From UHGV virus genome UHGV-1351772: a stretch of 64,000 bases of DNA; one strand, given 5' to 3'. Source of the DNA: a virus. Of the stretch, positions 9,602 to 64,000 are shown in pieces (the stretch's first letter is position 1; each line of letters opens with the position of its first letter). Below the pieces are notes generated by a model, which saw only the letters and a list, made by a program, of their open reading frames with translations, had not been told where the DNA came from and searched no databases. Position numbers and translations under genes: made by a program.

Positions 9602-10580
9602 TATATCCGCCTTGTAACGATGACACTTCGTCGACTAACACCAATTTGACATGATTTTTCTGACGCTCCCAACTGACGACGTTTTCGTCACGCACTAAAA
9701 CAAATTCGTATTCGTAGGGGCGAAATTTAAATAATTCGACGGCCAGGTGCCTGAATGCAGGGTTGTTATTGAAACACCCTATCTCTAATGGTGCCGCTGT
9801 TGTCGATGCAATTTGTAGGGCACGATACAACAAAGTCCGTCCGATACCACGACCCCGATGTGTCTCACTTACCGCAATGGCTTTTAATTCACATTCGTTA
9901 AGATTACGCAATTTAACTTGCACCGCGCCCACAATATCGTTGCCGTCCATCCAAACGTAAGTATGGTGGTTGACATGACGTACTAACTCCACCAACGTTT
10001 CGACTTGTGGCATGATTTGACGTGAGCGACTCACAGGGTCAGCGTTGATGTTTTCAACGACACTCGTACCCAAAAGCAACATAAGCTGTTCGCGTTGTGT
10101 GGCGGTTAACTCTTTATAAAAATCACCGGAGATGTTCTTCACGTTTGTTGGTAGAGCGATATCCAACAACGAGCGTGTACCTAAACGATACGTAGTGTGG
10201 GTGTGTCTAAATCCTAAGTCATTAAGCTCAGCGATTTCTTCTACACCACTGGCGATTCGATTAAGGTACGTAAAACCGGTATAGTCGAGTACCAGTAGCA
10301 GGTTCAGTTTGTTCAAACAACCCGGTACAATTTCATGCATGTACAAGCAGTGTAACGTTGGGTCGCCGTAAATGTGTTTTGTGATGATAAACCCTTGGAT
10401 TGTTTTTCCTTTTTGTAAAGAGAACGTATTCAGTTCACTATTGCACAACGCCTCACGAATCACCGCGCCGTTAGGGCCCGATAAACATGCCTGAAGTTGA
10501 GGGTTGCGAATATCTCTACGTGCTAACCGACCTACTGTTAAATCCGTGGCGGTATGTTTTATAATCTTCATAAAAGCCAT
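9582..10580 (-). CDS. GNAT-family acetyltransferase with ~170 aa N-terminal extension
   Basis: C-terminal half carries acetyl-CoA motif AIAVSETHRGRGIGRTLL; AAGGAG RBS 8 nt upstream of ATG 10580. Confidence 0.55.
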   Translation of the reverse strand: MAFMKIIKHTATDLTVGRLARRDIRNPQLQACLSGPNGAVIREALCNSELNTFSLQKGKTIQGFIITKHIYGDPTLHCLYMHEIVPGCLNKLNLLLVLDYTGFTYLNRIASGVEEIAELNDLGFRHTHTTYRLGTRSLLDIALPTNVKNISGDFYKELTATQREQLMLLLGTSVVENINADPVSRSRQIMPQVETLVELVRHVNHHTYVWMDGNDIVGAVQVKLRNLNECELKAIAVSETHRGRGIGRTLLYRALQIASTTAAPLEIGCFNNNPAFRHLAVELFKFRPYEYEFVLVRDENVVSWERQKNHVKLVLVDEVSSLQGGYNAETDN

Positions 10581-11847: not shown

Positions 11848-12471
11848 TTAGTTTGCTAAAATGTGCGTAACAATCTCAGCGGCTTTCAAACGGTAATCGT
11901 CATTCTGCGTTACTGGTAATAATGCGTGAAGACAACCACCTTCTGTTAAGATGTGATGCGCGAAACGATAATGGTCGCGTAGGCCATCCCAACATTGATT
12001 GTCCATTAGATACTTAACCGTAAGTACCTCATCGTCCCAATTCTTACCTTGTTCTTCTACACGTTTCTTAAATCGCGCTAACGCTGTTGGGTAATCAACA
12101 TCAGTCCAAACATAAAGGTCGGGTGCGTGGAAATGACGAGTTAGCTTACGTTGGAAAACTACGTCCTTGCCATCTGTCCCCTGATAAACAATCGTTGAAG
12201 GGCAAAAACGATCGAAAATGACGACATCGTACTCGTCAACAACATGGTCTAACGTGTGAAGGAAGTCATCACACATTGCTTCAGCAATTTTTGTTTTCGA
12301 AGCAGACTGTACAACCAAGCTACGTGCACGAATACCCGCCTCGGTTTCAGACGTCGGATGGTTCCGAATACACACTTTTAATCCTGCGGACTCCAACATC
12401 GCTTTTACCATTTTACACAACGTTGATTTCCCAGAAAAATCAGGACCATCAATAGACACGGTCTTAAGCAT
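11848..12471 (-). CDS. thymidylate kinase / dNMP-kinase-like P-loop kinase
   Basis: Walker A GPDFSGKST at N-terminus, ~200 aa. Confidence 0.6.
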   Translation of the reverse strand: MLKTVSIDGPDFSGKSTLCKMVKAMLESAGLKVCIRNHPTSETEAGIRARSLVVQSASKTKIAEAMCDDFLHTLDHVVDEYDVVIFDRFCPSTIVYQGTDGKDVVFQRKLTRHFHAPDLYVWTDVDYPTALARFKKRVEEQGKNWDDEVLTVKYLMDNQCWDGLRDHYRFAHHILTEGGCLHALLPVTQNDDYRLKAAEIVTHILAN

Positions 12472-12502
12472 TATTGTTTTACCTTTACGCGCTTTTAGAT
12501 AA

Positions 12503-12525
12503 AAGGGGTGTAAAAAACACCCCTT
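12503..12525 (-). terminator. hairpin, probable terminator
   Basis: aaggggtg/cacccctt stem with A-rich loop. Confidence 0.4.
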
Positions 12526-12533
12526 AGTTTTAC

Positions 12534-13148
12534 TTACAATTCAAAATATGTGGAAATTAAGCTCTCAAGGTTACGTTCTTCGTACACTTCCTTACTCGTA
12601 GGGTAACCGACGGTATGGTATTTCGCTGTAAAAGAAATGGCCTTGTTTGCAACGACGTACCGGTCATCGATACTCACCTTTTCAGGATGCTTGAGGCTGA
12701 GCGTGACGGTACGTATATGGGTCACCTCAAAATCTTTGATGATAACGCGATCTCTGTGTCGTGAGATAGCAAAATTGCTACTGCCCGCCACGAACTCCTC
12801 ATAACCGCCGACCAATTTAAGAGCTGCTAAACATGCAGTATAAGCGGGATATTTATCAGCCAATAGTTGTTCTTTTGTTACAAAGAGTTTATAGTCTTCC
12901 TCATCGCGAAGGTATCTCAGCAATAATTGGGAACGGAATTTCGACAACAGTCTTTCGTACTGCGATTCCCAGAGTTTTCCATTTTCAGTGAAGAGATGAC
13001 CAACGGTATACTTTAATTTCTCACCTTCATAAATCAAAAGCGAATTTTTCGAGACAAAGCCCGCATTCTTTCTATTTTCGCCAATTTCATTTTCAGCAAC
13101 TTCAACTAAAGTGTAGTTGTTAGGGAGTTCAAAGCGCTTAATTTCCAT
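12534..13148 (-). CDS. hypothetical protein
   Basis: ORF track. Confidence 0.45.
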   Translation of the reverse strand: MEIKRFELPNNYTLVEVAENEIGENRKNAGFVSKNSLLIYEGEKLKYTVGHLFTENGKLWESQYERLLSKFRSQLLLRYLRDEEDYKLFVTKEQLLADKYPAYTACLAALKLVGGYEEFVAGSSNFAISRHRDRVIIKDFEVTHIRTVTLSLKHPEKVSIDDRYVVANKAISFTAKYHTVGYPTSKEVYEERNLESLISTYFEL

Positions 13149-13191
13149 AATTTATCTCTCTTTAAATTGGTGAGTTACCGACTCACTACGG

Positions 13192-13218
13192 TTGTCACAT
13201 TGATAATATCAATCTGTA
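13192..13218 (-). promoter_or_regulatory. promoter-like motif, divergent copy
   Basis: ttgtcacattgataatatcaatctgta; matches consensus at TCAC and TAATAT..ATCTG. Confidence 0.35.
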
Positions 13219-13248
13219 ATAAAATTTAGGGTAAAAAAAAGAAACCCG

Positions 13249-13268
13249 CCCCTACCGTTAAGTAGGGG
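13249..13268 (-). terminator. rho-independent terminator
   Basis: cccctac/gtagggg stem after A-run. Confidence 0.5.
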
Positions 13269-13275
13269 TAAGGTT

Positions 13276-13881
13276 TTATTGGTGATCAACAATCGGACCA
13301 CTCCACACTTCTGACGTTTGTGGTGCGGTGAGGTTAGCAGCCTGTGCAGACGTTACGCACAGCAAGACTAACCCTTGTTTAGCAAGATAGTGTTGCATTC
13401 TTGCTGCCTCCACGGAGGTGTCCACAATAACGAGCTCAGCGCCACGTAGAAGCGTTAGAGCCGCTTGTCCCTCCTGTGGCGTGGTTAAAGCATCACTGTC
13501 GTCCAGAATGCGTTTAAGGCGGTTATACGCCAACCCAGTTACATTACTCCGACCTGCACGAAGATCGACAACCATATTGTTGTATTCCCCCACCACTTGT
13601 TGCGTCGAATTGGGATAAAATCGAAACGCGGCACGGCGGCGTTTACGACGCACCTCAGAAATCGCGCGTTGTAAAACTAGTAAAACGTATTTCGGTGCCG
13701 CTTCGCTATTCGGACGACGCATCTTGGCTAAACGTGCAGCTAAATCCAAAATTTTCGTTAAGGGATAGCGATGTTTAAACCCGTCGCGTTCAATAGTAAC
13801 GCCACGCTTAGGCAACTTGCCCGTTTTGTTGATATACGATACTGTAATCAATAGTAATGAATCGAGAATCATCTCTGACAT
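13276..13881 (-). CDS. hypothetical protein
   Basis: ORF track. Confidence 0.45.
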   Translation of the reverse strand: MSEMILDSLLLITVSYINKTGKLPKRGVTIERDGFKHRYPLTKILDLAARLAKMRRPNSEAAPKYVLLVLQRAISEVRRKRRRAAFRFYPNSTQQVVGEYNNMVVDLRAGRSNVTGLAYNRLKRILDDSDALTTPQEGQAALTLLRGAELVIVDTSVEAARMQHYLAKQGLVLLCVTSAQAANLTAPQTSEVWSGPIVDHQ

Positions 13882-13895
13882 TACAAGGCCCTCTC

Positions 13896-14267
13896 TTAGA
13901 ACCCCTCAAGAACAGCTTTCACAAATTCATAAACTGTGCGTCGGTGTTCTTCAAGCGGATAAACAAACTTAGAATAATCGTTGTTCCAGACAACCGGATA
14001 GAGGTCGCCATCACAACTTAAATAGCTCTTACGAACCATGTAATAATCTAAACCTACACGGAAGTTTAACGACAGACTACCGTGTTTACTACAAACGTGT
14101 AGCTGGAGCGATTTCACACCGTCTTGAGTTGGTGATTCAATCGTTTCCGCATACAATACATCCGAACACTGTTCTATAGCGCTAACGACATCTCTGAGGT
14201 TGTTGTCTGCATCGATGGTCGCTTTTCGGAGAGCGTCGGTGTATTGCTGAAGTTCTCGATAGAACAT
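13896..14267 (-). CDS. hypothetical protein
   Basis: ORF track; start uncertain (overlaps 14174..14806). Confidence 0.35.
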   Translation of the reverse strand: MFYRELQQYTDALRKATIDADNNLRDVVSAIEQCSDVLYAETIESPTQDGVKSLQLHVCSKHGSLSLNFRVGLDYYMVRKSYLSCDGDLYPVVWNNDYSKFVYPLEEHRRTVYEFVKAVLEGF

Positions 14268-14806
14268 CCTGCTAATCTCCTGTCTCTACCGTATGGCAGA
14301 GGAAATGCTTTGTGTTCAAATTCTGCAACGACATACGCAGGATAGAACAAAAGGTATTTATAGAACGTAGACAACGTAACGTTTTTCTGGGTGGCTAAAA
14401 AGTAATTAAGATCGGGGTTGTCTGGAAAAGCAAAATGCAACCCTGTGTATACCTGACCTTTATACTCCCCATTAAAGGGTGTGACTGCACATCGTGGGTG
14501 TGTCGGCTCGACGTGTAACCAACGACTTCTTACGTGATAAACGCCACGGACTGTCGCGTTTCGTGTTTTACCCAAATAACGGCAACGGATATTCTTTTCC
14601 CACGCCGCACGTTGAGTGGGTGAACCCAGAGAAACAAACCGCGTTAAAGCTTCAGGTGTAAAGTAATCAAAAATGCCGGTCGGTAAACACCAACACGCTT
14701 TATCGATTCGTACCACTCTCCAACCAGGACGAAAACCCACAGCGTAACGCTCTACACCAAAAGTATATCTAGACCCGTCATGAAACGGTACTAATCTTGC
14801 AGCCAT
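14174..14806 (-). CDS. hypothetical protein
   Basis: ORF track. Confidence 0.4.
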   Translation of the reverse strand: MAARLVPFHDGSRYTFGVERYAVGFRPGWRVVRIDKACWCLPTGIFDYFTPEALTRFVSLGSPTQRAAWEKNIRCRYLGKTRNATVRGVYHVRSRWLHVEPTHPRCAVTPFNGEYKGQVYTGLHFAFPDNPDLNYFLATQKNVTLSTFYKYLLFYPAYVVAEFEHKAFPLPYGRDRRLAGCSIENFSNTPTLSEKRPSMQTTTSEMSLAL

Positions 14807-29849: not shown

Positions 29850-31625
29850 TTAACGGCCAATCTTCGCAATGTCTTCTTCGGTTGCTTGGATCAACTCGTT
29901 GAGTTTTGGATTACGTACCATCACCAGTTGGGTGTTCGTCTTCATATACGGATTGAGAATACCCGATTTGAACGGTGATGATTTCGGAATGTAATACACG
30001 TTACCACATTCCAGATGAGATGCAGAGGCATGTTTTGTCCGGTCATTAAGGTTAACCGTCTTACCGCCCTTGCTGTTACGTTTTGATTCTGTTTCTGTCT
30101 GGCTGATAGCATGGGTTGAAACCCCCAGCACCATAGACTCGGTAGAAGCGTTGAAATAACTTACACCGCCATTGCCGGTAATGTTGCGTAATACCAGGCT
30201 GGTTACAATGTCTTTATTCAACGCACTGCGTATCATGTTCGCACAAGACTCCGGTGTTCGATTTTCCGTTTGTCCCAAGTGGAAACGAATCGCTGCGATG
30301 GTAGGCGTAAAGCCACGCTCACCCAATAACAGGTAATCTGTTACGGTCAGACGTTTTCCATACATTGACGGAATATCACCTTGTTTCGTAAGGCGCGTTC
30401 TCACCATCAACTTCGTCGCGTACCAGAAGAAATCAAACATATCCATATCGTCCGGGATATCGGGATCTGACATCATTAACTCGCCACGGAATGTTGAGTT
30501 AACGTAACGTTCACACTCCGTATAGTGCTTCGTCATGCTGTGTGCCAGTTCAATATCGGACGGTTTAAGTCCAACAATACTTCTCCCCAAAATCTCCCGC
30601 CAAATTGCGGAGGAATTCAGGTTTACAACATCGTCCTCCATTGCAAGTTCGTTAATCGCGGTAAACAACGGCGGTAAAGGAACAACGTTGCCGCTTTTAA
30701 TCGCTTGCTTTCCGCAATAATAGTGCGCTGCTTTAAAGAATGCAGAAATCGCCACGAGTAATAAGTGCTCGTTTTGATCCCATCCCGCTTTATCGAGATT
30801 TGGTAAAGCCTCTGCAGGAACCGTCACTACGTACATAATCGACCGATTATGTTTAGGCTCACCTGAACTGATTACTACTTTTTTATCGAGATCGATTTCA
30901 GGTACTTTGAATGCAGGATATATCTCCACATCCACGCCAGTATAACGTTTGATGGCTTCCTTAAATCCATAACGTCCGAATAGCCAGTACATTAACGGCT
31001 TTTCGTCCGTGTCAGGATGTGTGGCGTTTTTGGCTTTAAACAAATTGTTTGTTCCGGGTAAGAACAACTCTTCTTTCTTCCCATTCACTAAAATCCGTAC
31101 CGGGTGCTTACAGAATTTTAATGACGCTTTACGTTTAAAGTCAAAATTAACAAACACCCCGCCGTGCTCACGACAGATACCCGGCTGATGAATAACAGGT
31201 GCAACATGATACGTTGTTCCGTAATAGTTCATCAACCCACCACGACGAATGAAAGGCAAGTTAATCGGTCTTGAGATTGGTCTTGAGTCTCCAGGAATAC
31301 GGAACGACGACATGACCATATACGCATCGGTATTCGCGATAGACATCACCCCACGACGCTTATCCATCCTGCTGCTCTCTGAACGAGACAGCTTATAGAT
31401 AAAAGTTTCGAACGGCGACATTAAACGAACACCCAACACGGCCAAGCCTTCAGGAACACGAGGGTTCTCTACAGGATGGTAATCTAGCTCACGTTTCAAG
31501 ATACGATGTACACGATCGTGAATACCATCTTTGGCTTGTGTATAACCGACTCCTTCCGCAATCGCACGGTTAAAGGGTACTATTTTACCACTCTCTTTAA
31601 GCTTTTTGATTGCATCTTTAAACAC
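29850..31625 (-). CDS. hypothetical protein
   Basis: ORF track. Confidence 0.5.
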   Translation of the reverse strand: MFKDAIKKLKESGKIVPFNRAIAEGVGYTQAKDGIHDRVHRILKRELDYHPVENPRVPEGLAVLGVRLMSPFETFIYKLSRSESSRMDKRRGVMSIANTDAYMVMSSFRIPGDSRPISRPINLPFIRRGGLMNYYGTTYHVAPVIHQPGICREHGGVFVNFDFKRKASLKFCKHPVRILVNGKKEELFLPGTNNLFKAKNATHPDTDEKPLMYWLFGRYGFKEAIKRYTGVDVEIYPAFKVPEIDLDKKVVISSGEPKHNRSIMYVVTVPAEALPNLDKAGWDQNEHLLLVAISAFFKAAHYYCGKQAIKSGNVVPLPPLFTAINELAMEDDVVNLNSSAIWREILGRSIVGLKPSDIELAHSMTKHYTECERYVNSTFRGELMMSDPDIPDDMDMFDFFWYATKLMVRTRLTKQGDIPSMYGKRLTVTDYLLLGERGFTPTIAAIRFHLGQTENRTPESCANMIRSALNKDIVTSLVLRNITGNGGVSYFNASTESMVLGVSTHAISQTETESKRNSKGGKTVNLNDRTKHASASHLECGNVYYIPKSSPFKSGILNPYMKTNTQLVMVRNPKLNELIQATEEDIAKIGR

Positions 31626-32827: not shown

Positions 32828-35122
32828 TTATTTACCAGCAGCAGCTTTGCCTTCGCCAGCAACGTTACCTGCTACACCACCTTCGGTTTGTTTCTGACCG
32901 TTCTGTTCAACAGAAACATTGTAAGCCAGTTTTTCTTCAACCAGTTTGGTGATGCCTTTAACCCAGATCAGACCAGTGATCGGGCAGTGGCAGATGTGCG
33001 CGTTACGTGGCTGTACGGCCAGCTCTTTAGAGGTAGAACCGTTACGCTGAATGTTGATGTTGGTAACCATGATCGGAGACCAGAAGTGGTTACCCCAGTT
33101 CAGCACGTTGTAGGAACCATCGTCCGCAGTCGGAACTTTCAGGAACCATTGCAGACGACGAGTCCAGGAACCGTCAGCTGCGTTGTAGATACGCCAGCGG
33201 TCATCGTTGGTGGTGATCACTTCGTATTCGTAGCGATCGCCCAGCAGACGTTGGTCGCCCTGTACCAGCAGCAGCATAGATGCAGTCGGTTCGTCAGTTG
33301 CAATAACAACTTTCGGCAGAATGTCCGGATCGGCAGTGTACAGACGCAGCGCAGGAATGAAGCGAGATTCCTGGATAGCCTGAGTTACCTGATTACCGAT
33401 ACGCTGTACCAGGCCCTGACGAGCGTTGATCAGTGCATCTTTGGTATCCAGGGACTGTACAACTTCATCAACGTTGTAGTCAGACTCTTTGAACCACGGA
33501 GCAACCCAGTGACGTCCCAGACCACGAATGGCCGGTTTGTCCCACGGAGTGATCATGCTTGCAGCAGCGTTACGTACCGCTTCGGTGTAAGACAGCGTCT
33601 GAGTGATAGCCAGCTGTTCGTTACGGATGTTAACTGCGGAAATCAGGTCGTCCAGACGTTCGGTATCGTCGTATTCAACTCCAACCGGAGACTTGGTCAG
33701 GATCGGAGAACCGTATTGCAGTTTGTAGTTTTCTTGTTCCCAGATTGGGTCAAGCAGCAGACCCTGGGTACGACGGTTTTCGTTGGTACGAGTACCATCG
33801 AAGCGCCAGCCCATCAGTTCAAGTTTCAGACCGTCCAGGATAACTTTGCCGGTACCAGATTTGGTATCAACTTTGTTACCGGTAGCGTCGTACAGACCTT
33901 CGATTTCCAGTTTGTGACCAGCGATGTCAACTTTACCACCGAACTGACCGGTAGTGAACAGAGACATGTTGATGGTGATCACATAACGCAGGGTGTAGGA
34001 GTTCTGACCAAGCGCTTGCAGTGCCGGAATAGCCGCACCAGTCCAGTCGGTAGTTTTCGCGTTCAGAGAGAACGCAGTACGACGGAATTGCAGTACCAGC
34101 TCACGGCCATCACCTTCAGCAGGACGCTGGAAGGTTGCGAACTGCATGTCACGAACGTGCAGTTTGATGAATTTACCTGCTTTTGCTTCTTCGGTCGGTT
34201 TACGTACGGAAATCAGCAGGCTGCCCAGAGCACAACCCGGTGCGATTTCATCAGTTTCGTCGTAACCTTCCTGAACGATACCCGGATGCGCAGACAGCTG
34301 GAACAGGTTCAGAGTGTCTTTAGCAAAGCTCAGGTAGTTAGTCGGGTACGGAGGTACACGACCCAGGCGAACAGATTCGTTCGGTACCAGTTCTTCGCTT
34401 ACGAAGTATTCAGCGTTTTCACCGGTTTCCATTACGTAAGGAACGATGTTGATCGCTTCGTCCTGAAGAACGGTGTGGTCAGTCAGCGCTTCGTGCAGGT
34501 TACGACGATGATCTTCAACAACGTCTTTGGTCAGTAACGCGTGCATGACACCACGAGAAACGGTGGTCACTTTGGTACGTACGGTAATACCAACGTCATT
34601 GGTGTCAACGGTGATGGTCGGGAACAGAGTCTCAGCGAAACGAGACTGAGTTTCCAGAGCACGTACGTTCAGCGTCCAGGTCAGACCCAGGTTTTTGTCG
34701 TAATCTTTGTTGGTGTAGTATTCCTGAGCAACAACCATACGCTCTTTGCCCCAGTCGCCGTTACCAGCTTGGGAACCAGGAATCGCAACGTCCAGGTTAA
34801 AACGGCTATGGAATTCTGGCTTAGCGTATTCTTGCGCTACTTTTTCTTGCAGGTCCATACCGTGACCAGCAGCACCCAGAATCATTGCAGAAGCAACTTC
34901 CGCAGCGTGGGACATTTTCTTGCCGCCAGCAAACGCGTTTGCGTAGTGCTGTGCAGCATCGTCACGCAGGGTACCAAAAACTTTCGTGTTGCTACGTACA
35001 GACTCACCAGCAACGATGGTGTTCCACATTTCGCCAGCACTGTTGTTACTAATGACGCTTTGTACCAGCGAGTTACCAGCTTGTACGAGTTTCTCCAGAT
35101 TAGAGATTCGGGTATCTTTCAT
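32828..35122 (-). CDS. major virion structural protein, possibly jumbo-phage-type major capsid protein
   Basis: 764 aa, strongest host-like codon bias in window, strong terminator, N-terminal S/A/G-x-E motifs typical of prohead-protease-processed capsid proteins; assignment is inference. Confidence 0.45.
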   Translation of the reverse strand: MKDTRISNLEKLVQAGNSLVQSVISNNSAGEMWNTIVAGESVRSNTKVFGTLRDDAAQHYANAFAGGKKMSHAAEVASAMILGAAGHGMDLQEKVAQEYAKPEFHSRFNLDVAIPGSQAGNGDWGKERMVVAQEYYTNKDYDKNLGLTWTLNVRALETQSRFAETLFPTITVDTNDVGITVRTKVTTVSRGVMHALLTKDVVEDHRRNLHEALTDHTVLQDEAINIVPYVMETGENAEYFVSEELVPNESVRLGRVPPYPTNYLSFAKDTLNLFQLSAHPGIVQEGYDETDEIAPGCALGSLLISVRKPTEEAKAGKFIKLHVRDMQFATFQRPAEGDGRELVLQFRRTAFSLNAKTTDWTGAAIPALQALGQNSYTLRYVITINMSLFTTGQFGGKVDIAGHKLEIEGLYDATGNKVDTKSGTGKVILDGLKLELMGWRFDGTRTNENRRTQGLLLDPIWEQENYKLQYGSPILTKSPVGVEYDDTERLDDLISAVNIRNEQLAITQTLSYTEAVRNAAASMITPWDKPAIRGLGRHWVAPWFKESDYNVDEVVQSLDTKDALINARQGLVQRIGNQVTQAIQESRFIPALRLYTADPDILPKVVIATDEPTASMLLLVQGDQRLLGDRYEYEVITTNDDRWRIYNAADGSWTRRLQWFLKVPTADDGSYNVLNWGNHFWSPIMVTNINIQRNGSTSKELAVQPRNAHICHCPITGLIWVKGITKLVEEKLAYNVSVEQNGQKQTEGGVAGNVAGEGKAAAGK

Positions 35123-35672: not shown

Positions 35673-37235
35673 ATGAATAACAAAATGATGTTGATAACCG
35701 CCTTAGCCACATTATACGCTGAAAGTCTTCTGACCGATCCTGAAAAGGACCACGACATCATAAGAAAAGTGCTGTTAGAGGCTAAGCTTCCTGATTACGC
35801 AGAAGAAGGTGACGAACGTGCCGCCCTCGTCGAAATCAAGGATATCATCACATCCATCATAGACGGCGGTATGCCTTACGACCACACAAACGTCATGAAA
35901 CGTTTGAAACTGGCCACTACGCAAATACGTCCTCTATACGATACGATTACCAAATTCCTGGAAGATGATATTCCAGAAGAACCAGAAGCACGCATCGAGC
36001 ATCTTAATCGCCAAGTAGCACAATACTACTTTCAGTTACGTCAAGCTATTCAAGGCGTACAACTGAAACAAAAATTGGGTCGTACGTTAGGCGCACTGAA
36101 CGGCACTGAAACGCGTGTTGATTTACAAACGGCGCTCAACGACCTTAAGGATACCTTATCCACGTTCAGTGAACGCTCTCATAATAAGATTCCTTCTCTG
36201 GTAGGGGAATTGATTACTGATAATAAAGCACCTTTCGTGCATGTATTCGACTCTATCAGTAAGAAAGCGGCAGGGAACGGGTTGCGTACGGGGTGGAAAG
36301 CAATTAACCAAATGCTCGGTTGTAACAAAGGGATCACCGAAGAACTCTGGCTGATGCCTGCTCTTCCCTTTAACTGTAAATCATTATTCAGTTTATTGCT
36401 CTCTATTAGCATTCCTGTATTCAACACTCCAGAAAAGGTGATGGCGAATGTTAAAGGTGACCTACAACCGGTTATTCTGGATTTAAGTTTAGAAAACGAA
36501 TTGGATGTTAACTTGGCTTACGCGTATCAAGCACTTTACGGACACTTTGAAGGTACAGCTCCGGTAATGGTTGCACCTGAAACGGCAACTGACGAAGAAA
36601 AAGCGCTACACAATGCACAAATGTCAGATTACCTCTGTAGTAAAATGCGGGCAAACGGTTGGGAGTATATTTTCCAAAAACACACAAACTCCGATTTTAA
36701 AATTCACTATTTGAATGATTTGATTTTAGATTTAAAACGTCGAGGTTATCATGTAGCTGGAATACGCGGAGACTATTTCGGTACTATCAGCAAAGCAGGA
36801 CACGGTAACGGCATTGCGGGTAGTGACATTAAAGAAATTTATCGTATCGCGCGAAACATCCAAGTGGTACGTAATCGTGGTTTCCTCTTAGCACCACACC
36901 AAATCTCACCTGAAGGCAAAAAATTAAAAGCACTCGACCCAGCAAGTTTCTGTAAGAGCTTACCTGGTCGTGGTCTTTACGACAACTGCTCTAGCTTAGA
37001 CAACGAAGCTGACGGTGAGATGTATTTTAACAAACGTGTCGTCAGCGGACACAGCTATTTAGAAGTACAACGCGGTAAACACCGTACCATTATTGATACC
37101 AAAGAAGCTTATCATTATACTGTAATACCTTTCCGTGATGTTGGCATTTTGCCATGGGATTGTGATAAAGAAGAAACTGTAACAGCCTCGTCGATTAACG
37201 TATTTACCGGCGGCATGGGTGACGAACTCTTTTGA
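35673..37235 (+). CDS. hypothetical protein (520 aa)
   Basis: AAGGATG RBS; plus-strand island. Confidence 0.5.
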   Translation: MNNKMMLITALATLYAESLLTDPEKDHDIIRKVLLEAKLPDYAEEGDERAALVEIKDIITSIIDGGMPYDHTNVMKRLKLATTQIRPLYDTITKFLEDDIPEEPEARIEHLNRQVAQYYFQLRQAIQGVQLKQKLGRTLGALNGTETRVDLQTALNDLKDTLSTFSERSHNKIPSLVGELITDNKAPFVHVFDSISKKAAGNGLRTGWKAINQMLGCNKGITEELWLMPALPFNCKSLFSLLLSISIPVFNTPEKVMANVKGDLQPVILDLSLENELDVNLAYAYQALYGHFEGTAPVMVAPETATDEEKALHNAQMSDYLCSKMRANGWEYIFQKHTNSDFKIHYLNDLILDLKRRGYHVAGIRGDYFGTISKAGHGNGIAGSDIKEIYRIARNIQVVRNRGFLLAPHQISPEGKKLKALDPASFCKSLPGRGLYDNCSSLDNEADGEMYFNKRVVSGHSYLEVQRGKHRTIIDTKEAYHYTVIPFRDVGILPWDCDKEETVTASSINVFTGGMGDELF

Positions 37236-56603: not shown

Positions 56604-58274
56604 TTAATCAATCAATTTATTGAACTTCCCACCTTTCACAAGTGGGTTGGACTTGGCACGCTTCAACACCGTTGCCATAGACCCTGCGGCCTTGCACCAC
56701 ATGTTAATCATGTTTGCACTGTGCGCAACAGAATCCCAGACATTGCGGTCAGGGTTTAACACCATCATCGTGGTCAGCTCACGACCGTGAAGGTTAAAGT
56801 TTTCCCCTCGCGTCACTTGGTCTTTAAACGCCTGTTCCATCGCCTGCCATTTCTGACTGTCGACGCCAGAACGTGATTGGCGTGCCATCTCTTTCAAGGT
56901 TTTTACAACCTGATCGACACGTTTCTCCAACACCTTATACTTGTCTAGCGCAGTATTCGCTACGCCATCAGAGATACCACTACGTGCCAGTGTAATCAGA
57001 CATGCCAACAGCTCACGGTAATCCCCGTTACTTAAGCTCAACTCCTGGCGCATCATCTCCAGGTTTGTTGTGGAGCCAAAGAAAGAGTTAGCACCGATTG
57101 ATGCAATCATCCAACCGTTGTCTAATTCACGTGTGGTATAACCGAGAAGCTCAACCTTGTCTTTTACACGCAAAATTGGACCAGGACTACCTTTCTGTCG
57201 TCCAAATTCCGTGGCAGTATATTCAATTCGGCCATTGATCTCGCCTAACGCACGAACCAGATGCACAGCGGCGACTTGGTTCTCTTGCGATGTGCCTACC
57301 TTCGGATTATTCGACAGGTAATACGTTTTGATGTCTTTCAGCGACTGGTCTAAGTCCTGAAGCGCACCGGCAAAACTGTCAAGAATCGTGCTCATTAAGT
57401 TGAACTGAATATCTGACGGAATGTTCACCCCAGCACGTTTCACATCAGGCGGCAAACCGTTATAGACTTCCTCAGCAACCCCGAAGTCAAATACACCGTA
57501 ACCGATGTTCGTCCGAAGCAGCGTATCGAGCAGATCCTGAATAACCTGCAGCTCATTCTGCCGACGTTTAAGATGGTTCTTAAACGTATCGATAAACGGT
57601 GATTTACCTAACGCAGCGGCGAGTTTATTTAGAAACTCTTCAGCTTCCATGTTCACGAAAACGTCGTCAGCCAGCGAAAGAGATAACTCCAGGTTGCTTA
57701 ACTCGCTGTCTTTCAAACCTTTTGACAGTACCAGATAAACTTCTTTCAGTACGGTTGTTTTCAGGCGCTCTGTGAAAGGAACATCGGCCAACTTCTCTTC
57801 CAGTTTCTCGCGATAGTCGTTCCCGTCAATGTTCGCAGCACCTGCAAAAGGAACGGCGTTGCTGATAATCCAACTGAGGATTTTCATTATCCCCATCATC
57901 ACCATCACGATGAGGCTAATCTTACCAAAATTAGCGTAAGACTCTAATGCCACCACCGTTTCTTTCTGGTGTGTTTTGGAATAATTCGACGTCAGGACAC
58001 TTTGTACAGCCTTTGGGATCGTACCAGGACGCAACGATTCAGTCGCTACAGCAACATCACGGTTCAACCCTGCTTTACGTATTTCCCGTAAGATCGCTTC
58101 AATCTGCGCGATAAGGCGAGAGCCGTAAATCAGGTCTGCTTCATTACGTTGCATGTAGAGATTGAGTTGGCTAACAGAATCGATGCGTTCTTCCATGCGC
58201 TGTTCTAACAGTGCAGGAAGTTCATCGAGTTTCCATTGCGGTTGCGCAATGTTTGCTGTCATCTCCATACTCAT
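56604..58274 (-). CDS. membrane-associated hypothetical protein
   Basis: Internal ATG 58274 (ATGA overlap with upstream stop); hydrophobic segment ISLIVMVMMGIMKILSWIISNAVPFAGAA. Confidence 0.4.
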   Translation of the reverse strand: MSMEMTANIAQPQWKLDELPALLEQRMEERIDSVSQLNLYMQRNEADLIYGSRLIAQIEAILREIRKAGLNRDVAVATESLRPGTIPKAVQSVLTSNYSKTHQKETVVALESYANFGKISLIVMVMMGIMKILSWIISNAVPFAGAANIDGNDYREKLEEKLADVPFTERLKTTVLKEVYLVLSKGLKDSELSNLELSLSLADDVFVNMEAEEFLNKLAAALGKSPFIDTFKNHLKRRQNELQVIQDLLDTLLRTNIGYGVFDFGVAEEVYNGLPPDVKRAGVNIPSDIQFNLMSTILDSFAGALQDLDQSLKDIKTYYLSNNPKVGTSQENQVAAVHLVRALGEINGRIEYTATEFGRQKGSPGPILRVKDKVELLGYTTRELDNGWMIASIGANSFFGSTTNLEMMRQELSLSNGDYRELLACLITLARSGISDGVANTALDKYKVLEKRVDQVVKTLKEMARQSRSGVDSQKWQAMEQAFKDQVTRGENFNLHGRELTTMMVLNPDRNVWDSVAHSANMINMWCKAAGSMATVLKRAKSNPLVKGGKFNKLID

Positions 58275-58714
58275 ACCAGCTCGCCTCGCGTTTCTTCCAT
58301 ATAGAATTTCACCGTTTCCATGAAACGTTCCAGCCACAGATTAACGGTATCCCATACATCGTCGCCCAAGGCTTCATTGAAAATCTCACGGACAGAGAAG
58401 TTTTCAATAGCGCGACGGCCGCCCCAAGCGCTATCGTAGCGGTTACAAAACAGTGCCACTGTCAAATCTTCAATACTGCCCAGATCGACACAATAAAGCT
58501 CGTTTACGTCCGAAACAACATTTTTCATCAGCGGGCGAAGCTTTAGCTGCGACACTTCATTCGACCCAAACGGGCCATTATCGGGCATATCGGTATTATA
58601 AGCCAAAGCGAATGCGACCAGGCCAGTCAGCGCGCGTTGTGCCTGTACACCTTTACCCTCGTTCGTACGTTTAAAGTCCAGAACCAGGGAATTTAAAGAA
58701 ACTTTATGCGTCAT
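58271..58714 (-). CDS. hypothetical protein
   Basis: ORF track. Confidence 0.4.
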   Translation of the reverse strand: MTHKVSLNSLVLDFKRTNEGKGVQAQRALTGLVAFALAYNTDMPDNGPFGSNEVSQLKLRPLMKNVVSDVNELYCVDLGSIEDLTVALFCNRYDSAWGGRRAIENFSVREIFNEALGDDVWDTVNLWLERFMETVKFYMEETRGELV

Positions 58715-58728
58715 GATTTTACCTTTAC

Positions 58729-60063
58729 TTATTCGACATTAAACATGGCTGAAGCAATACGAAGATCGTTCGACATATACTTCCCAATCGCACGCTGGTA
58801 ATCAACTGCAGCACGTGAGCGACGACCCTTCGGCGTTAAAGTATTCCAGATAAACTGATACAAGTTATCTTTATCTTTTACGGTTTCTAATAACTTGTCG
58901 ATAACCGCAATACCATCTAAAATACGTTTACGTTGCTCGTTAGCCGCCTTCGTATTTTTGTCTTTAATCGTATTGAGTTCTTCAACGAGTGTACGTCGCA
59001 TTGCCTCAAAACGCTGCTGCGGCGGATCGTAAATGGTGTTATCCGGGTCATTTAAGATCATTCCGAACGTCACGGAAATCACTGGAATAATTGGAATCGT
59101 AGAAGAGACTATTAACGCGGTCACGCGGAAAAGTTCTACTGTCAAATGGACACCCATGTTCATATACGCTGAGTTCCGCAGCAAATAGAACGAACTGGTT
59201 TCCATTTTATACAGTGCAGAGGCCAGATAAGGAGCGCCTCCGAAACGGGAAGCAAAATCATCCGCAGCACGTTCCCACGTCCTGTTAGCAAAGCCTTGAC
59301 TACCGCTAATGAACGGACGATCTAATAACAGCTGTGTGACCAAGTGCATGTAGACGTTTTCTTTTTTGTACTCAGTACAAATCGTTTCTGGCTGATTCAC
59401 TTTCGTGTTCAGCATCTTCTCTACGTCTTTAACAATGCGCAAGCGGACAGTTTGGTCTTCTGTTTCCATGATGCGGTTAGCCGCAGCATCTGCCAGCAAA
59501 TCAGTCACCACGGTACGCATTAGCGTACGGAAATAATAATAGATGTGGCCGACTTCATGAAGAATCACCGAGGCGATTTCCAGATCGGTCAGATTTAATT
59601 TTTCCAGCAGCACCGGGGTAAGATAAAGCGGAGAACCCACTTTGCTTAAATCGCCACTGATTTTTGCGCTGCTGTCATCGATTGATGTGTTCAGTTCGTT
59701 TTCTTTGATGAACTTACTGTACATATCCAGGTCTTTGTTACCTGCGTACAGTGCGCGAGTCATCGATGCAATGATTGGACTGTTTGCATCCAATTTCGGT
59801 GGTTCTACGCCTGCAAAAGCAACGTCAACAAGACCCAGTTCGCTACCGTTCTTAAAGTGAATCGTAATGCCGATATTCTTAAATACCCAATCCGAAACCC
59901 CGGCACTTTCGTAGCCAGCAGGACTGAAATCGCCTGCTCCACGAAACTTAGCAATAATATCAGCCAATTCTGCCAGCTTCTTTTTGTCTTGGAATTTAAT
60001 CGATTCTGCGGCTACAACCTTTGCATCCGCAACTGATGCAATGTGATTTTGCCAATATCCCAT
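58729..60063 (-). CDS. putative zinc metallopeptidase (HExxH) with C-terminal hydrophobic segment
   Basis: ASVILHEVGHIYYYF motif; ATG 60063 with AAGGAAA RBS preferred over track start 60096; single-motif call. Confidence 0.35.
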   Translation of the reverse strand: MGYWQNHIASVADAKVVAAESIKFQDKKKLAELADIIAKFRGAGDFSPAGYESAGVSDWVFKNIGITIHFKNGSELGLVDVAFAGVEPPKLDANSPIIASMTRALYAGNKDLDMYSKFIKENELNTSIDDSSAKISGDLSKVGSPLYLTPVLLEKLNLTDLEIASVILHEVGHIYYYFRTLMRTVVTDLLADAAANRIMETEDQTVRLRIVKDVEKMLNTKVNQPETICTEYKKENVYMHLVTQLLLDRPFISGSQGFANRTWERAADDFASRFGGAPYLASALYKMETSSFYLLRNSAYMNMGVHLTVELFRVTALIVSSTIPIIPVISVTFGMILNDPDNTIYDPPQQRFEAMRRTLVEELNTIKDKNTKAANEQRKRILDGIAVIDKLLETVKDKDNLYQFIWNTLTPKGRRSRAAVDYQRAIGKYMSNDLRIASAMFNVE

Positions 60064-60134
60064 TTGTGTTTCCTTTTGAGAAATTACATTACCCACAAAT
60101 CAGTATAGCAGCCGCTAGATTTGAGAGTGAAATC

Positions 60135-61916
60135 ATGAATAACTATTACGCACCGGAAGACGTTATTGCCAAGGAGTGCAAGTTTGTTTCTTACGCAACC
60201 GATCAGCAGAAAGAAAACGACTTCGTGCTCATAAAGGAGGTCGTCCATACTAAAGATGGCAGATATATCCCACGAATTGTCATGCGTGAAAATCTGAAAC
60301 GGCCCATCTACATTACTTTACCACAACATCGTAACCACAAGGAAAAGAAAGAATACGAAGAACGTAGTAAGTGCCAGGAATATTTAACAACGGACGTAAT
60401 GATGTCCTCAACCATACAGATGGGTCTGGGGATTCGTTTTCCCGATAAAAAGAAACCACTCCGTCAGGTTTGTACTTCACCGTATGTTTACTGGGCTGAT
60501 TTGCCCATTACTAGCTGGATTAAAGAAAAGTACATACGTAAATGGCCTAATGCTGTTTCACCTAACCGCATCTGTGTATACGACGTGGAAACTCGAGAAG
60601 AAGACAAGTCTCGAGACCCCTGGATTATGAGTTTTGTTTTAGACGACGAAATTCATTTCTTTGCTACGAAAGACTACGTCACCCGTTGCGGACGTGAAAA
60701 CTTTGAAGCGCGACTCGTCAAACGTGCTCAAGAATTGCTTTCTAAAATCGCTTTTCGTGGAAAAGACGAGAACGACAACCCTATCGTTAAATACAAAAAC
60801 GTTATCGACGGTTACAAAATCTTCGTTTACGAATGTCTCAATTCGGGTTGTTGTATTCAACGGATGTTTGAGGAAATTCACCCTCGTCTCCCTGACTTAC
60901 TCGTCGCATGGAACCACGAGTTCGATATTTCACGTATGTTAGAAGCTTTAGAAGCAGCGGGCATTCCACCGGAAGACGTCTTCTGTCATCCAGACGTGCC
61001 GAAACAGTACCGTCGTGTCTACTTTAAGAAAGACGAAGCATCGAAGAAAACGGAATCAAAGTCATTAACAAAAGCGCCTTCGCAACAGTGGCACATTCTT
61101 TATTGTACGGCGTCATTCTACTGTGTAGATGCAATGTGTCTATTCCGTTCATTGCGTGTACACGAGGGACAACGCCCCTCTTACAAACTTAACGCGATAC
61201 TGGAAACCGAGTTGGGTTTAAACAAGTTGGACTTACCAGAACTACCCTACGAGGAAAAGTTGGAATGGCACTTAAAGGCGCAGAAAGATTTCCCGTTAGA
61301 ATACTGCGTTTATAACATCTTCGATAACTTGATGATTGTTCTGCTGGATAAAAAGACGAACGATCTGTCTTCTGCTATTTCAGTTTTGGCGGGTTATTCG
61401 ATGTATGATATTTTCCCTTCTCTACCGAAGCGAATCTGTATTGCATACACGTATTACCTCTATGAACAGGGTCTGGTTATCGGTTGTGTGGGTAGCGCGA
61501 TGCGTAACGATTTCGACAATGAAGTCATTGGGACGGATGGTTGGATTGTTACATTGACTGCGTGTATGAACGCAGAGAATGGGCTACGAAACATCATCAA
61601 GGAAGTTGATGATTTCTACACGGCTTTCCGTGGGCAAACTGCGGATGCTGACTTAACCCAGGCATACCCATCTGCAACGAACATGATGAACCAGTCTCGT
61701 GAAACAACGTTAATCGAGCTATTGAGCATTCACGGTGTTCCTGAAGAGGTGCGGCGTCGTGTCGGTATTAACCTTACTGCGGGGCGTGTCAATGCAATGG
61801 AAATCGCGACAGATTTCTTCCTGTTGCCCGATAAAAACGACGTCTTAGAAGCTTTTCTACGTAGACAAGGAGAAACGATTACCGATCCTTTTGAATATAT
61901 CAAAGCTGCAAAGTAA
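60135..61916 (+). CDS. family-B DNA polymerase, N-terminal portion (3'-5' exonuclease domain through motif A)
   Basis: Exo I ICVYDVETRE, Exo II VAWNHEFDISRML, Exo III YCVYNIFDNLMI, motif A DADLTQAYPSA with T4/RB69-like spacing; motifs B and C absent; ATG 60135 used because track start 60021 overlaps divergent gene. Confidence 0.6.
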   Translation: MNNYYAPEDVIAKECKFVSYATDQQKENDFVLIKEVVHTKDGRYIPRIVMRENLKRPIYITLPQHRNHKEKKEYEERSKCQEYLTTDVMMSSTIQMGLGIRFPDKKKPLRQVCTSPYVYWADLPITSWIKEKYIRKWPNAVSPNRICVYDVETREEDKSRDPWIMSFVLDDEIHFFATKDYVTRCGRENFEARLVKRAQELLSKIAFRGKDENDNPIVKYKNVIDGYKIFVYECLNSGCCIQRMFEEIHPRLPDLLVAWNHEFDISRMLEALEAAGIPPEDVFCHPDVPKQYRRVYFKKDEASKKTESKSLTKAPSQQWHILYCTASFYCVDAMCLFRSLRVHEGQRPSYKLNAILETELGLNKLDLPELPYEEKLEWHLKAQKDFPLEYCVYNIFDNLMIVLLDKKTNDLSSAISVLAGYSMYDIFPSLPKRICIAYTYYLYEQGLVIGCVGSAMRNDFDNEVIGTDGWIVTLTACMNAENGLRNIIKEVDDFYTAFRGQTADADLTQAYPSATNMMNQSRETTLIELLSIHGVPEEVRRRVGINLTAGRVNAMEIATDFFLLPDKNDVLEAFLRRQGETITDPFEYIKAAK

Positions 61917-61929
61917 AAAAAAATAAACG

Positions 61930-61957
61930 TTACCCTACTCCTTCGGGAGTAGGGTAA
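61930..61957. terminator. bidirectional terminator, identical copy of the 56570 hairpin
   Basis: ttaccctactcc ttcg ggagtagggtaa. Confidence 0.7.
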
Positions 61958-61962
61958 TACTT

Positions 61963-62472
61963 TTATGCCGCGTTGAAGCAGTAAGCCAGTAAGTGTTGCA
62001 GCTCTGGATCGGTCACACGTTGTACCAAACGTCCAACGTTGTCACGCTGAGCAAAGTTTGCTTTATCCTGAGAATTTGCGAAACGTACTAACATGTTGAT
62101 AAACACGACGTATGTTTCACGTTCAGCGGAATCGTAAAACCAATCTAAATGGTAGTTCACATTCGGATAGTAGAAGATACCACGTTTGTGTTTAATTGCA
62201 GCTTCAACGAACACGTTGAACGCATCAATGAATGCTTGGCCACGCAGTTCAAATAACGTACGGAACGATTGATGCAGCTTACGGAAAGCGTCGTCAGCTT
62301 CTGGGGTATCTTTCGGTTTATTTTGGCTAATTGCCCCGCCAGCCTCATCGAGCTGAGTAGCAATAAGTCGCACCTGGTACGCATCATCCTGACTGTAAGT
62401 TACCGCATTTTCCTCAGCGCGTCTTACCGCTGATGGGCGTTCATCTTGTGTCGAAATATCTTTAGTTGCCAT
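61963..62472 (-). CDS. hypothetical protein
   Basis: ORF track. Confidence 0.45.
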   Translation of the reverse strand: MATKDISTQDERPSAVRRAEENAVTYSQDDAYQVRLIATQLDEAGGAISQNKPKDTPEADDAFRKLHQSFRTLFELRGQAFIDAFNVFVEAAIKHKRGIFYYPNVNYHLDWFYDSAERETYVVFINMLVRFANSQDKANFAQRDNVGRLVQRVTDPELQHLLAYCFNAA

Positions 62473-62485
62473 TGGCTAATAATCC

Positions 62486-63787
62486 TTACGTAATGTGGAT
62501 CGATGGATTAAATTCGTGTACCACTGTCTCTTTACCGTGCATCGCGGCCATTGCCACGGACATAACGTTAGAGAACGCCGAGGATATATCCGCAGCGATT
62601 GCGCGAGGTTCTTCCCCTTTATTCGCAGACGAACACGCTGTGCAGGTGTCGATGTGGCCATACTGACATAAGATGGGTCGGCGTAACCGCACCACTTTAC
62701 CTAACTGCTGTTTTAAATATTCCTCAGTCAGTGGTGTCAGTTTACCATTAACCATCGCATTCATCCCAACGTAACGTTTTACGTTATCATCGGTAATCAC
62801 AACCGGATACGTTAGTTTCGTTCCACAGTCACCAGGGACGATTCGGTGGTTCTGGAAAATCATCTGGATAATACGTACCTGCTCACCCCCTTTCGCTGTT
62901 TCCGCACCACGAGAGAACGAACCTTCACGGATAGAGTTGAATTTCGCGACCAGGTTTTCCATCCCCGCCTTATCAACTTCAACTAATGCGTTCGGAATGA
63001 GCGTGTAATGGCCCCCTTCCTGAAAAGACGATTCAATACCGTACATCAGCATTAATTTACGTCGACGCATCCGCGATTTCGGCGAGTTATAAAACTCAAT
63101 AGATTGGTCACCCGACAACCACTCTTTATCTAACTCATCCAGCGCTTTTTCAATCTTAACGATAACGGCAGGATCGTCTAACTCGTCTTTGTGCTTCAAC
63201 AGTAACGCATCGCGGATTTTATACGCATCAGGATGCACCGTGAGGCTTCGTAACGTACCTGTTGGTGCAATACCTGACGTGAGCGGTGCGAGCTCGTGTA
63301 AGCCGCTTACAAAGCGCTCAATCATACTCGGTCGAATTGCACCTTCGTTTTCTGGCTCATCGGTTTCATGGTCTAAACAACGACGATGCATCTCTTTGCG
63401 ATATTCCAACGGGTTTTGTGAAATCGCCAGATAAGGTAAGCGTGTACCAAATGCATACCAGATAACAATCCAGTTAAAAACGTATCGTCCTACTGTCGTG
63501 GGAATAGGACCGTCTAAACCGGGATAATCGTCAGGGCGTAGCTCGAACTGTTCTTCAGGGACAAACAGCTCCTGGTCCTTTACACCGTCAGTAATCGGTT
63601 CCCAACTGCCCTTACCGTCTTCTACAGCGTAATAATGCGGTAAGCCGTCGATATACGTTATATCAAACACTTCGGGTTCTTCGCGCCCTGTTGGAAACAC
63701 CGACATGTTAAAAATAGCAATACGCCAAACCAATCGACGCCAAGCTTCTGCTTTACATGCCGCTACTAAGAACTCAAACCTCGTCAT
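62486..63787 (-). CDS. hypothetical protein
   Basis: ATG 63787 with GAGGAGG RBS; track start 63805 is TTG. Confidence 0.45.
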   Translation of the reverse strand: MTRFEFLVAACKAEAWRRLVWRIAIFNMSVFPTGREEPEVFDITYIDGLPHYYAVEDGKGSWEPITDGVKDQELFVPEEQFELRPDDYPGLDGPIPTTVGRYVFNWIVIWYAFGTRLPYLAISQNPLEYRKEMHRRCLDHETDEPENEGAIRPSMIERFVSGLHELAPLTSGIAPTGTLRSLTVHPDAYKIRDALLLKHKDELDDPAVIVKIEKALDELDKEWLSGDQSIEFYNSPKSRMRRRKLMLMYGIESSFQEGGHYTLIPNALVEVDKAGMENLVAKFNSIREGSFSRGAETAKGGEQVRIIQMIFQNHRIVPGDCGTKLTYPVVITDDNVKRYVGMNAMVNGKLTPLTEEYLKQQLGKVVRLRRPILCQYGHIDTCTACSSANKGEEPRAIAADISSAFSNVMSVAMAAMHGKETVVHEFNPSIHIT

Positions 63788-64000
63788 CGTGCTCTGCCTC
63801 CTCAACCTGATAAATCAGCCGTAGGCTTTTTAATGCAGGTTGTAAAACAGTAATGGGTTGTAACCCATCATTATTAAGTTTCTCTAAGTTCGTCGAAAGA
63901 TCGGCATAGGCGTCATCGAAGTCATCGTTATCGATAATCGAAAGCCCTACCGTGTACATCTCGAGCAATTCTGTTTCGCTATAATCCTCGACGTCAAACA
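63774..64000 (-). CDS. acidic hypothetical protein, C-terminal part (gene starts beyond window end)
   Basis: Frame remains open to position 64000; track start 63968 is TTG. Confidence 0.3.
   Translation of the reverse strand, partial: FDVEDYSETELLEMYTVGLSIIDNDDFDDAYADLSTNLEKLNNDGLQPITVLQPALKSLRLIYQVEEAEHDDEV

Follow-up and report, generated by a model that had tools for sequence, protein, structure and literature searches.

The window analysed here, a 64,000-nucleotide stretch of the virus genome UHGV-1351772, contains near its right end a gene for a family B DNA polymerase that ends shortly after motif A. This gene is very probably complete and functional, and encodes the N-terminal subunit (DNAP-N) of the heterodimeric family B replicative polymerase of phiKZ-like (chimallivirus-type) jumbo phages, whose C-terminal subunit (DNAP-C) is the product of a separate gene.

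The longest open reading frame (ORF) across the feature extends on the plus strand from a TTG start at 60021 to position 61916. The true start of DNAP-N is likely the ATG at 60135, because a Shine-Dalgarno-like GAGAG box lies 7 nucleotides upstream and the same start was called on independent contigs. The box is located within a divergent intergenic region of ~70 bp, common to DNAP-N and the upstream minus-strand gene. The coding sequence closes with a TAA codon at 61914-61916, and a terminator hairpin begins 13 bases past this stop (predicted RNA fold of -23.2 kcal/mol, z = -5.49, with none of 200 shuffled sequences as stable). The terminator is common to DNAP-N and to the convergent gene that follows. 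Both the bidirectional terminator and the convergent, unrelated gene had been reported in the preliminary description of the locus and were seen again here. The early end of the ORF was also confirmed, but the ~95 residues given there for the segment past motif A should be corrected, as 87 residues separate the motif A aspartate D506 from the C-terminus.

The Exo I, Exo II, Exo III and motif A signatures previously read from the sequence were all located in DNAP-N (Table 1). Comparison by hhalign of a 33-sequence DNAP-N alignment with the gp43 polymerase of phage RB69 (probability 96.8%, E-value 2.5e-10) matched DNAP-N residues 142-526 with RB69 residues 106-431, and placed the DNAP-N segment DADLTQAYPSATNMMNQSRETT opposite a 22-residue RB69 segment, so that D506 corresponds to RB69 D411 and would be the catalytic motif A residue. 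The exonuclease residues D150, E152, Y393 and D397 were invariant in the 33 DNAP-N homologues, while N260 and D264 were each present in 32 of them. Among the DNAP-N sequences that contain the motif A columns, D504 and D506 were found in 29/29, and Y511 and P512 in 28/28. Given this invariance and the in-register alignment to RB69 gp43, the exonuclease and motif A signatures are not chance matches, and the earlier claim that motif A resides on this polypeptide holds. The ORF does not encode a complete single-chain family B polymerase, since it carries Exo I-III and motif A without motifs B and C. Nor does it encode a stand-alone DnaQ-like 3'-5' exonuclease, as the RB69 N-terminal domain, the exonuclease domain and the start of the palm are all covered and motif A is invariant.

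Several lines of evidence showed that this architecture is shared by a whole family. The protein matched PHROG 3011 ('DNA polymerase') with an E-value of 1.4e-250, residues 3-583 aligning with profile positions 2-573 of 576. Homologues of DNAP-N were detected by tblastn in 300 phage records, in 287 of which a single match covered at least 80% of the query. They included phiKZ PHIKZ082, EL gp051, PhiPA3, phiEaH2, SPN3US-like Salmonella phages and Erwinia phage Asesino, with a coverage of 95-100% to phiKZ PHIKZ082, EL gp051 and others. DNAP-N is thus a homologue of phiKZ gp82, EL gp51, phiEaH2 gp227 and Asesino gp61, and over its full length is 80% identical to the Asesino protein (the closest among the phage records) and ~34% identical to that of phiKZ. 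A HMMER search over 1.84 billion representative proteins (cut-off E ≤ 1e-30) recovered 614 representative clusters. The best 150 of these were 489-894 amino acids (aa) long, nearly all of them 546-630 aa and covering the whole profile, and no fusion of the N- and C-terminal parts (~1,300 aa) was found among them. Longer homologues of 682-894 aa were considered as fusions and rejected, as their extra parts are not DNAP-C (one is a DUF4326 domain and one an acidic helical tail). Moreover, an identical 593-aa protein is encoded on at least 23 contigs from different samples, some of them ~224 kb long. The full profile match, the length shared with the family and this identical protein exclude an assembly error or a recent truncation, and the suspicion that the stop at 61914-61916 might be an assembly error was not borne out. 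Several Salmonella phage SPFM records (e.g. LR535905.1 and LR535910.1) gave fragmentary or low-coverage DNAP-N matches; this looks like a problem of sequence quality or record boundaries, and not like biology.

The structure predicted for DNAP-N with AlphaFold2 (AF2) divides the protein in two. Residues 1-454 were mostly modelled with confidence, with 10-residue block means of ~80-98 in predicted local distance difference test score (pLDDT) over residues 1-450, except for one dip near residues 301-310; 369 residues reached a pLDDT of at least 90. For this N-terminal part, independent folding is predicted. With the same alignment as for the confident remainder, pLDDT fell below 50 for residues 455-537, 539-558 and 560-563, and the palm fragment is predicted not to fold without a partner subunit. 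The low confidence there supports the idea of a partner-dependent palm fragment. In a Foldseek search, the best Protein Data Bank (PDB) match of the DNAP-N model was RB69 gp43 (E-value 3e-13, query-normalised TM-score 0.49), with ~480 aligned columns to the RB69 gp43 structures. The best PDB match for the DNAP-C model of relatives was likewise RB69 gp43; in that model the segment with motif C was the weakest internal part except for residues 165-179. A sequence search of the PDB found no solved phiKZ-type polymerase, the only matches being weak profile matches to RB69 gp43 and to Pol zeta.

Table 1. Features of the DNAP-N locus and other genes in the 64,000-nucleotide window.
Feature	Position	Strand	Description
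DNAP-N coding sequence	60135..61916	+	593 aa + TAA; very probably the N-terminal subunit of the chimallivirus split family B DNA polymerase
Shine-Dalgarno-like GAGAG	60123..60127	+	Read from the sequence; 7 nt before ATG 60135
N-terminal and 3'-5' proofreading exonuclease domain	60135..61496	+	aa 1-454; AF2 model
Exo I VYDVETRE	60576..60599	+	aa 148-155; D150 and E152 opposite RB69 D114 and E116
Exo II WNHEFDISRML	60909..60941	+	aa 259-269; N260, D264; opposite RB69 WNVESFDIPY
Exo III YNIFDNLMI	61311..61337	+	aa 393-401; Y393, D397; opposite RB69 YNIID, residues 323-327
N-terminal palm fragment	61497..61913	+	aa 455-593; motif A and ~65-aa lineage-specific tail
Motif A DLTQAYPSA	61650..61676	+	aa 506-514; in register with RB69 DLTSLYPS; D506 ~ RB69 D411
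Bidirectional intrinsic terminator	61929..61958	both	13-bp stem, UUCG tetraloop, A-run before, T-run after
Convergent gene	61963-62472	-	PHROG 7825, function not assigned by PHROG; unrelated, conserved
Virion RNA polymerase beta piece	62486-63805		phiKZ-type context gene
Non-virion RNA polymerase beta piece	29850-31625	-	Homologue of phiKZ gp123; PHROG 2943 'polymerase'
phiKZ-type major head protein	32828-35122		Near the RNA polymerase beta piece at 29850-31625
DnaB-like replicative helicase	35673-37235	+	PHROG 3213, E-value 9e-199

The remainder of the polymerase was not found in the window. The preliminary description had reported that the ORF lacks motifs B and C; this agrees with our results and extends to the whole window, where a six-frame regular-expression scan detected no YGDTDS-like, K...NS.YG-like or KKRY motif in any long ORF. 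The ORF at 29850-31625 was considered as the missing half and rejected, as it is homologous to phiKZ gp123 and gave no DNA polymerase signal in Pfam. No DNA polymerase was found when 20 other large ORFs of the window were compared with PHROGs and ten with Pfam. Nor did the ten ORFs scanned with Pfam include a candidate for an RNase H or clamp-like (Rhc) protein.

In the closest complete relatives the partner gene could be located. The circular record NZ_CP173450.1 carries DNAP-N at 111984-113765 (+) and, 26.8 kb downstream, DNAP-C at 140555-142852 (-), annotated as 'family B DNA polymerase' by the Prokaryotic Genome Annotation Pipeline. In Asesino the partner is gp35 (12216-14501, 761 aa, PHROG 2927), located 27.7 kb from the DNAP-N gene and on the opposite strand. 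The earlier proposal of a split polymerase, with the palm and thumb part elsewhere in the genome, is supported by these partners, which carry motifs B and C. The two genes were ~27-53 kb apart in the 11 phages whose coordinates were compared. Members of the DNAP-C family occurred in 302 phage records and were spread over genera in the same way as DNAP-N, and both protein clusters of this lineage, DNAP-N and DNAP-C, were seen on contigs of 220-226 kb from Salmonella, E. coli and Shigella assemblies. DNAP-C genes were also present on metagenome contigs. By synteny, the DNAP-C gene of this phage would lie ~24.7 kb past the right end of the window, on the opposite strand. Directly upstream of DNAP-C, relatives have a gene whose product is a 'phage DNA polymerase-associated SH3 family protein' (PF20287, SH3DP; locus L009, 9487-9900; NZ_CP173450.1, 142952-143365).

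The DNAP-C proteins of relatives, ~765 aa in length, match Pfam PF20286 (divDNApol, 'divergent family B DNA polymerase') and, weakly, PF00136 (DNA_pol_B) over residues 94-189. They contain an invariant motif B (K157-x3-N161-x2-S164-G165), an invariant motif C (S422-D423-T-D425-S) and the KxY element K501-H-Y503. Residues 84-165 of the DNAP-C profile align with residues 1019-1099 of yeast Pol zeta Rev3, comprising a hairpin (IAPNGVVY), the first finger helix and motif B. When the profile was aligned by hhalign with the single RB69 sequence, only the KxY region was matched, with a probability of 19%; the placement of motif B is therefore based on the PF00136 and Pol zeta alignments. From the canonical family B alignment, the RB69 counterpart of the DNAP-C hairpin would be SPNGMMY at residue 457. 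The preliminary description had called for an alignment with RB69 gp43 to place the breakpoint. As the DNAP-N alignment ends at RB69 residue 431 and the canonical part of DNAP-C begins at about residue 99, equivalent to RB69 457, the break maps to about RB69 residues 432-456, in the N-terminal palm segment, between the helix of motif A and the hairpin leading to the fingers. RB69 has no equivalent of the final ~65 residues of DNAP-N or of the initial ~98 of DNAP-C, and we infer that this tail (about aa 529-593) and this head (about aa 1-98) form the subunit interface. DNAP-C also contains an all-helical insertion of ~200 aa between motifs B and C (about residues 170-400 of the reference protein P0068, encoded at L009:10001-12313), which carries an invariant GD(L/F)xH element (D288).

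These data are consistent with a polymerase assembled from two chains. DNAP-N would supply the N-terminal domain, the DEDD 3'-5' exonuclease, and the first palm strand and helix with D506. DNAP-C would supply the hairpin, the thumb, the fingers including motif B, and what remains of the palm, including motif C (SDTDS) and KxY. The two proteins would associate non-covalently in a 1:1 ratio, a process for which no intein, RNA splicing or gene adjacency would be needed, and the polymerase active site would be built across their interface, with motif A contributed by DNAP-N and motifs B and C by DNAP-C. On the alignments presented here, the location of motif A on DNAP-N and the resulting composite active site are likely. 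A stable 1:1 complex of phiKZ DNAP-N and DNAP-C and its cryo-electron microscopy (cryo-EM) structure are described in a preprint (Basu et al. 2026, PMC13648687), which also describes a boost of the phiKZ polymerase activity by the clamp-derived Rhc protein. The 1:1 complex with polymerase activity is a phiKZ result, and its extension to the phage studied here would be by analogy.

Some homologues of DNAP-N appeared to end earlier. Five proteins of ~480 aa stop just upstream of motif A, and ~10 of the best 150 clusters, with lengths of 489-510 aa, end at the same profile position. After the stop of one of the short homologues, a group I intron was detected (RF00028, 51.4 bits, E-value 4.8e-12) at 5443-5864 of locus L014 (Joint Genome Institute 3300035493 Ga0376446_000006), and the ORF that follows the intron encodes '...FRAQTADDDITQAYPTGEVIMNVSKETT...', which is the motif A exon. 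Gene calling at this locus had produced a 'truncated' protein of 478 aa and a 105-aa ORF containing motif A. The short homologues were therefore rejected as an alternative breakpoint, since a group I intron interrupts the gene and the motif A exon follows it; the homologues of ~480-490 aa are gene-calling artefacts and not another architecture. The location of the intron beside motif A fits a functionally critical site. No Rfam match was found in the region 58000-64000 of the window at E ≤ 0.1, indicating that this copy contains no intron.

The composite site was weighed against a different division of labour, in which DNAP-N is an exonuclease-only subunit with a vestigial motif A and DNAP-C alone holds a complete polymerase site with both aspartates. 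This corresponds to the model of phage EL published in 2011, where both catalytic aspartates, EL D229 and D398, were placed on the C-terminal protein (Kazlauskas and Venclovas 2011, PMC3201878). That assignment weighs against a composite site, and so does the low AF2 confidence for residues 455-563 of DNAP-N: the motif A segment is part of this region, and its palm fold is deduced by sequence alignment only. A further point against the two-subunit reading is that the DNAP-C of this very genome is placed from its relatives, no such gene lying inside the window.

Inspection of the residues in question favoured the composite site. EL D398 is the second aspartate of SDTD, and EL D229 is equivalent to D226 of the reference DNAP-C P0068. 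D226 is replaced by asparagine in 6/29 DNAP-C homologues, is located between helices and not in a beta strand in the model, and comes after motif B, contrary to the expected order of motifs. In contrast, D504, D506, Y511 and P512 of DNAP-N are invariant and in register with RB69 DLTSLYPS. In DNAP-C, canonical sequence begins only at the pre-finger hairpin, and the N-terminal DIDxxxxY look-alike is not conserved (D17 and D19 in 19/29 homologues each). In addition, the relative's group I intron targets a position just upstream of motif A, as is typical of sequence that is critical for function. Placing the motif A aspartate on the C-terminal protein, as was done in 2011, appears to be wrong, and an exonuclease-only subunit is very unlikely. 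A truncated exonuclease-only derivative, as offered by the preliminary description, is likewise unsupported in view of the family-wide constant length, the invariant motif A segment and the fact that in a relative this segment is a target of intron homing. Where motif A lies is presumably settled by the cryo-EM structure of the 2026 preprint.

A covalent joining of the halves, by a split intein or trans-splicing, or a T4-type split of gene 43 by a mobile element, is hardly credible. Family B polymerase genes split by mobile elements are known from Aeromonas phages 25 and 44RR (PMC2988022), and group I introns do occur in the DNAP-N family. However, no Hint or intein domain was found by Pfam either in DNAP-N, which had no Pfam matches, or in the DNAP-C of relatives, which matched only divDNApol and DNA_pol_B. 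The C-terminal tail of DNAP-N varies in length and sequence, and no Rfam intron match was obtained in the region around the gene. The intein or trans-splicing signatures suggested for scrutiny in the preliminary description were thus not found with Pfam on both halves or with Rfam on positions 58000-64000. Neither a homing endonuclease gene nor a second cistron next to DNAP-N is present; in relatives the partner lies ~27 kb away on the other strand, and phiKZ DNAP-N and DNAP-C purify as a 1:1 two-subunit complex (PMC13648687).

That the gene is an artefact or a pseudogene, with a stop arising from an assembly or sequencing error or from a recent truncation, has practically no likelihood: nothing speaks for it beyond the ORF lacking motifs B and C, whereas the product is identical on at least 23 independent contigs of different samples, the end point is shared by ~300 phage genomes and by the best 150 of the 614 clusters, PHROG 3011 is matched to its last positions, and a strong terminator and a conserved convergent gene directly follow.

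The separation of exonuclease and polymerase on two polypeptides was predicted for phiKZ-like phages by Kazlauskas and Venclovas in 2011 (PMC3201878), and the term 'split subunit DNA polymerase' was used in 2016 (PMC5105663). Compared with the phiKZ DNAP-N/DNAP-C pair, the present system has an orthologous gene of the same length, the same exonuclease and motif A signatures, a predicted non-adjacent divDNApol partner and the same type of neighbourhood, with pieces of a multisubunit RNA polymerase, a phiKZ-type capsid gene and a DnaB-like helicase. The differences are those of lineage-level divergence only, the window belonging to an SPN3US/Erskinevirus-like clade. In this clade the two genes are convergent, on opposite strands and ~27-28 kb apart, whereas two phiKZ-like phages carry both on one strand, with ~34-35 kb between them. 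The fold and the motif order (Exo I-III, A, B, C and KxY) are shared with RB69 and T4 gp43, RB69 gp43 being the best structural match for both halves. RB69 gp43 is a single chain of 903 aa, while here the break falls within the palm and is flanked by additional residues (~65 aa in DNAP-N and ~98 aa in DNAP-C), and DNAP-C has ~200 additional helical residues between motifs B and C.

In Aeromonas phages 25 and 44RR, gene 43 is present as 43A and 43B, whose polypeptides co-purify and are active together (Petrov et al. 2010; PMC2988022). As in our case, a family B polymerase is encoded as two polypeptides. The 43A and 43B cistrons lie side by side, with either a short untranslated spacer or a seg homing-endonuclease gene in between, and are confined to a few phages, whereas the genes for DNAP-N and DNAP-C are ~27-53 kb apart with no mobile element. 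DNAP-N is instead followed by the terminator and a convergent, unrelated gene. Split family B polymerases are also found in archaea, such as the two-gene polymerase of Methanothermobacter and the split-intein polymerase of Nanoarchaeum, which are encoded by non-adjacent genes for the N- and C-terminal parts; in Nanoarchaeum the halves are religated by the split intein. No intein was found here, and there was no specific sequence relationship to the archaeal proteins, the best matches being to phage gp43. The universality of the split across ~300 genomes and 614 clusters implies an ancient event.

A further proposal is that the phage exploits the separation of the genes, in different transcription units, to control when and where active polymerase forms. 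Neither polypeptide would polymerise alone, since the break crosses the catalytic palm, and control could be exerted by the timing of expression, by separate import into the phage nucleus, or through a pool of free DNAP-N that acts as a stand-alone exonuclease. We regard this proposal as unlikely.

The genetic context is also of the phiKZ type, as the window includes split multisubunit RNA polymerase genes, a phiKZ-type major capsid gene and a divergent DnaB gene (Table 1). The gene order at DNAP-N is the same as in phiEaH2, Asesino and EL. Based on these genes and their order, the window is, on sequence grounds, a piece of an SPN3US/Erskinevirus-like jumbo phage. The nearest named phage has ~73% nucleotide identity to the window. 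The nearest DNA matches overall (85%) are two circular 'plasmids', NZ_CP173450.1 from E. coli 98232 (221,873 bp) and NZ_CP134650.1 from Enterobacter ludwigii (222,441 bp). The jumbo-phage lineage is also seen as contigs of 220-226 kb in many isolate assemblies of Salmonella, E. coli and Shigella. Such 'plasmid' and isolate-assembly records suggest that an SPN3US-like phage is maintained in a carrier state or by pseudolysogeny, or that it persistently contaminates cultures.

Other observations were made on the neighbouring genes. The divergent neighbour of DNAP-N (58729-60096, minus strand) belongs to PHROG 2767 and is annotated in relatives as a virion structural protein; its product showed a weak Peptidase_M48 match and a HEVGH zinc-protease motif. 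This divergent pair is kept from phage EL to the window. Apart from DNAP-N, the DnaB-like helicase was the one replication protein that could be recognised in the window. The PHROG label 'polymerase' on the ORF at 29850-31625 is misleading, as its product is a fragment of an RNA polymerase beta subunit and its gene lies beside the major head protein gene. A DNA methyltransferase gene (PHROG 56) adjoins a gene for a GNAT acetyltransferase-domain protein, at 8786-9601 (-) and 9582-10580 (-), respectively.

The split polymerase of phiKZ-like phages is already known, and the finding is real but ordinary. The arrangement had been presented as worth documenting, a novelty that was overestimated, as a split polymerase with non-adjacent genes is a published, family-wide trait of phiKZ-like phages. 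Its value lies partly in annotation, as many records, that of the closest complete relative among them, call the ORF a 'hypothetical protein'; we propose the name 'DNA polymerase, N-terminal (exonuclease and motif A) subunit'. For gene calling, homologues of ~490 aa should be read as reflecting a group I intron and not a different architecture. For the biology of the family, motif A on the N-terminal subunit would mean a composite active site, and would correct the older picture of an exonuclease plus a complete polymerase.

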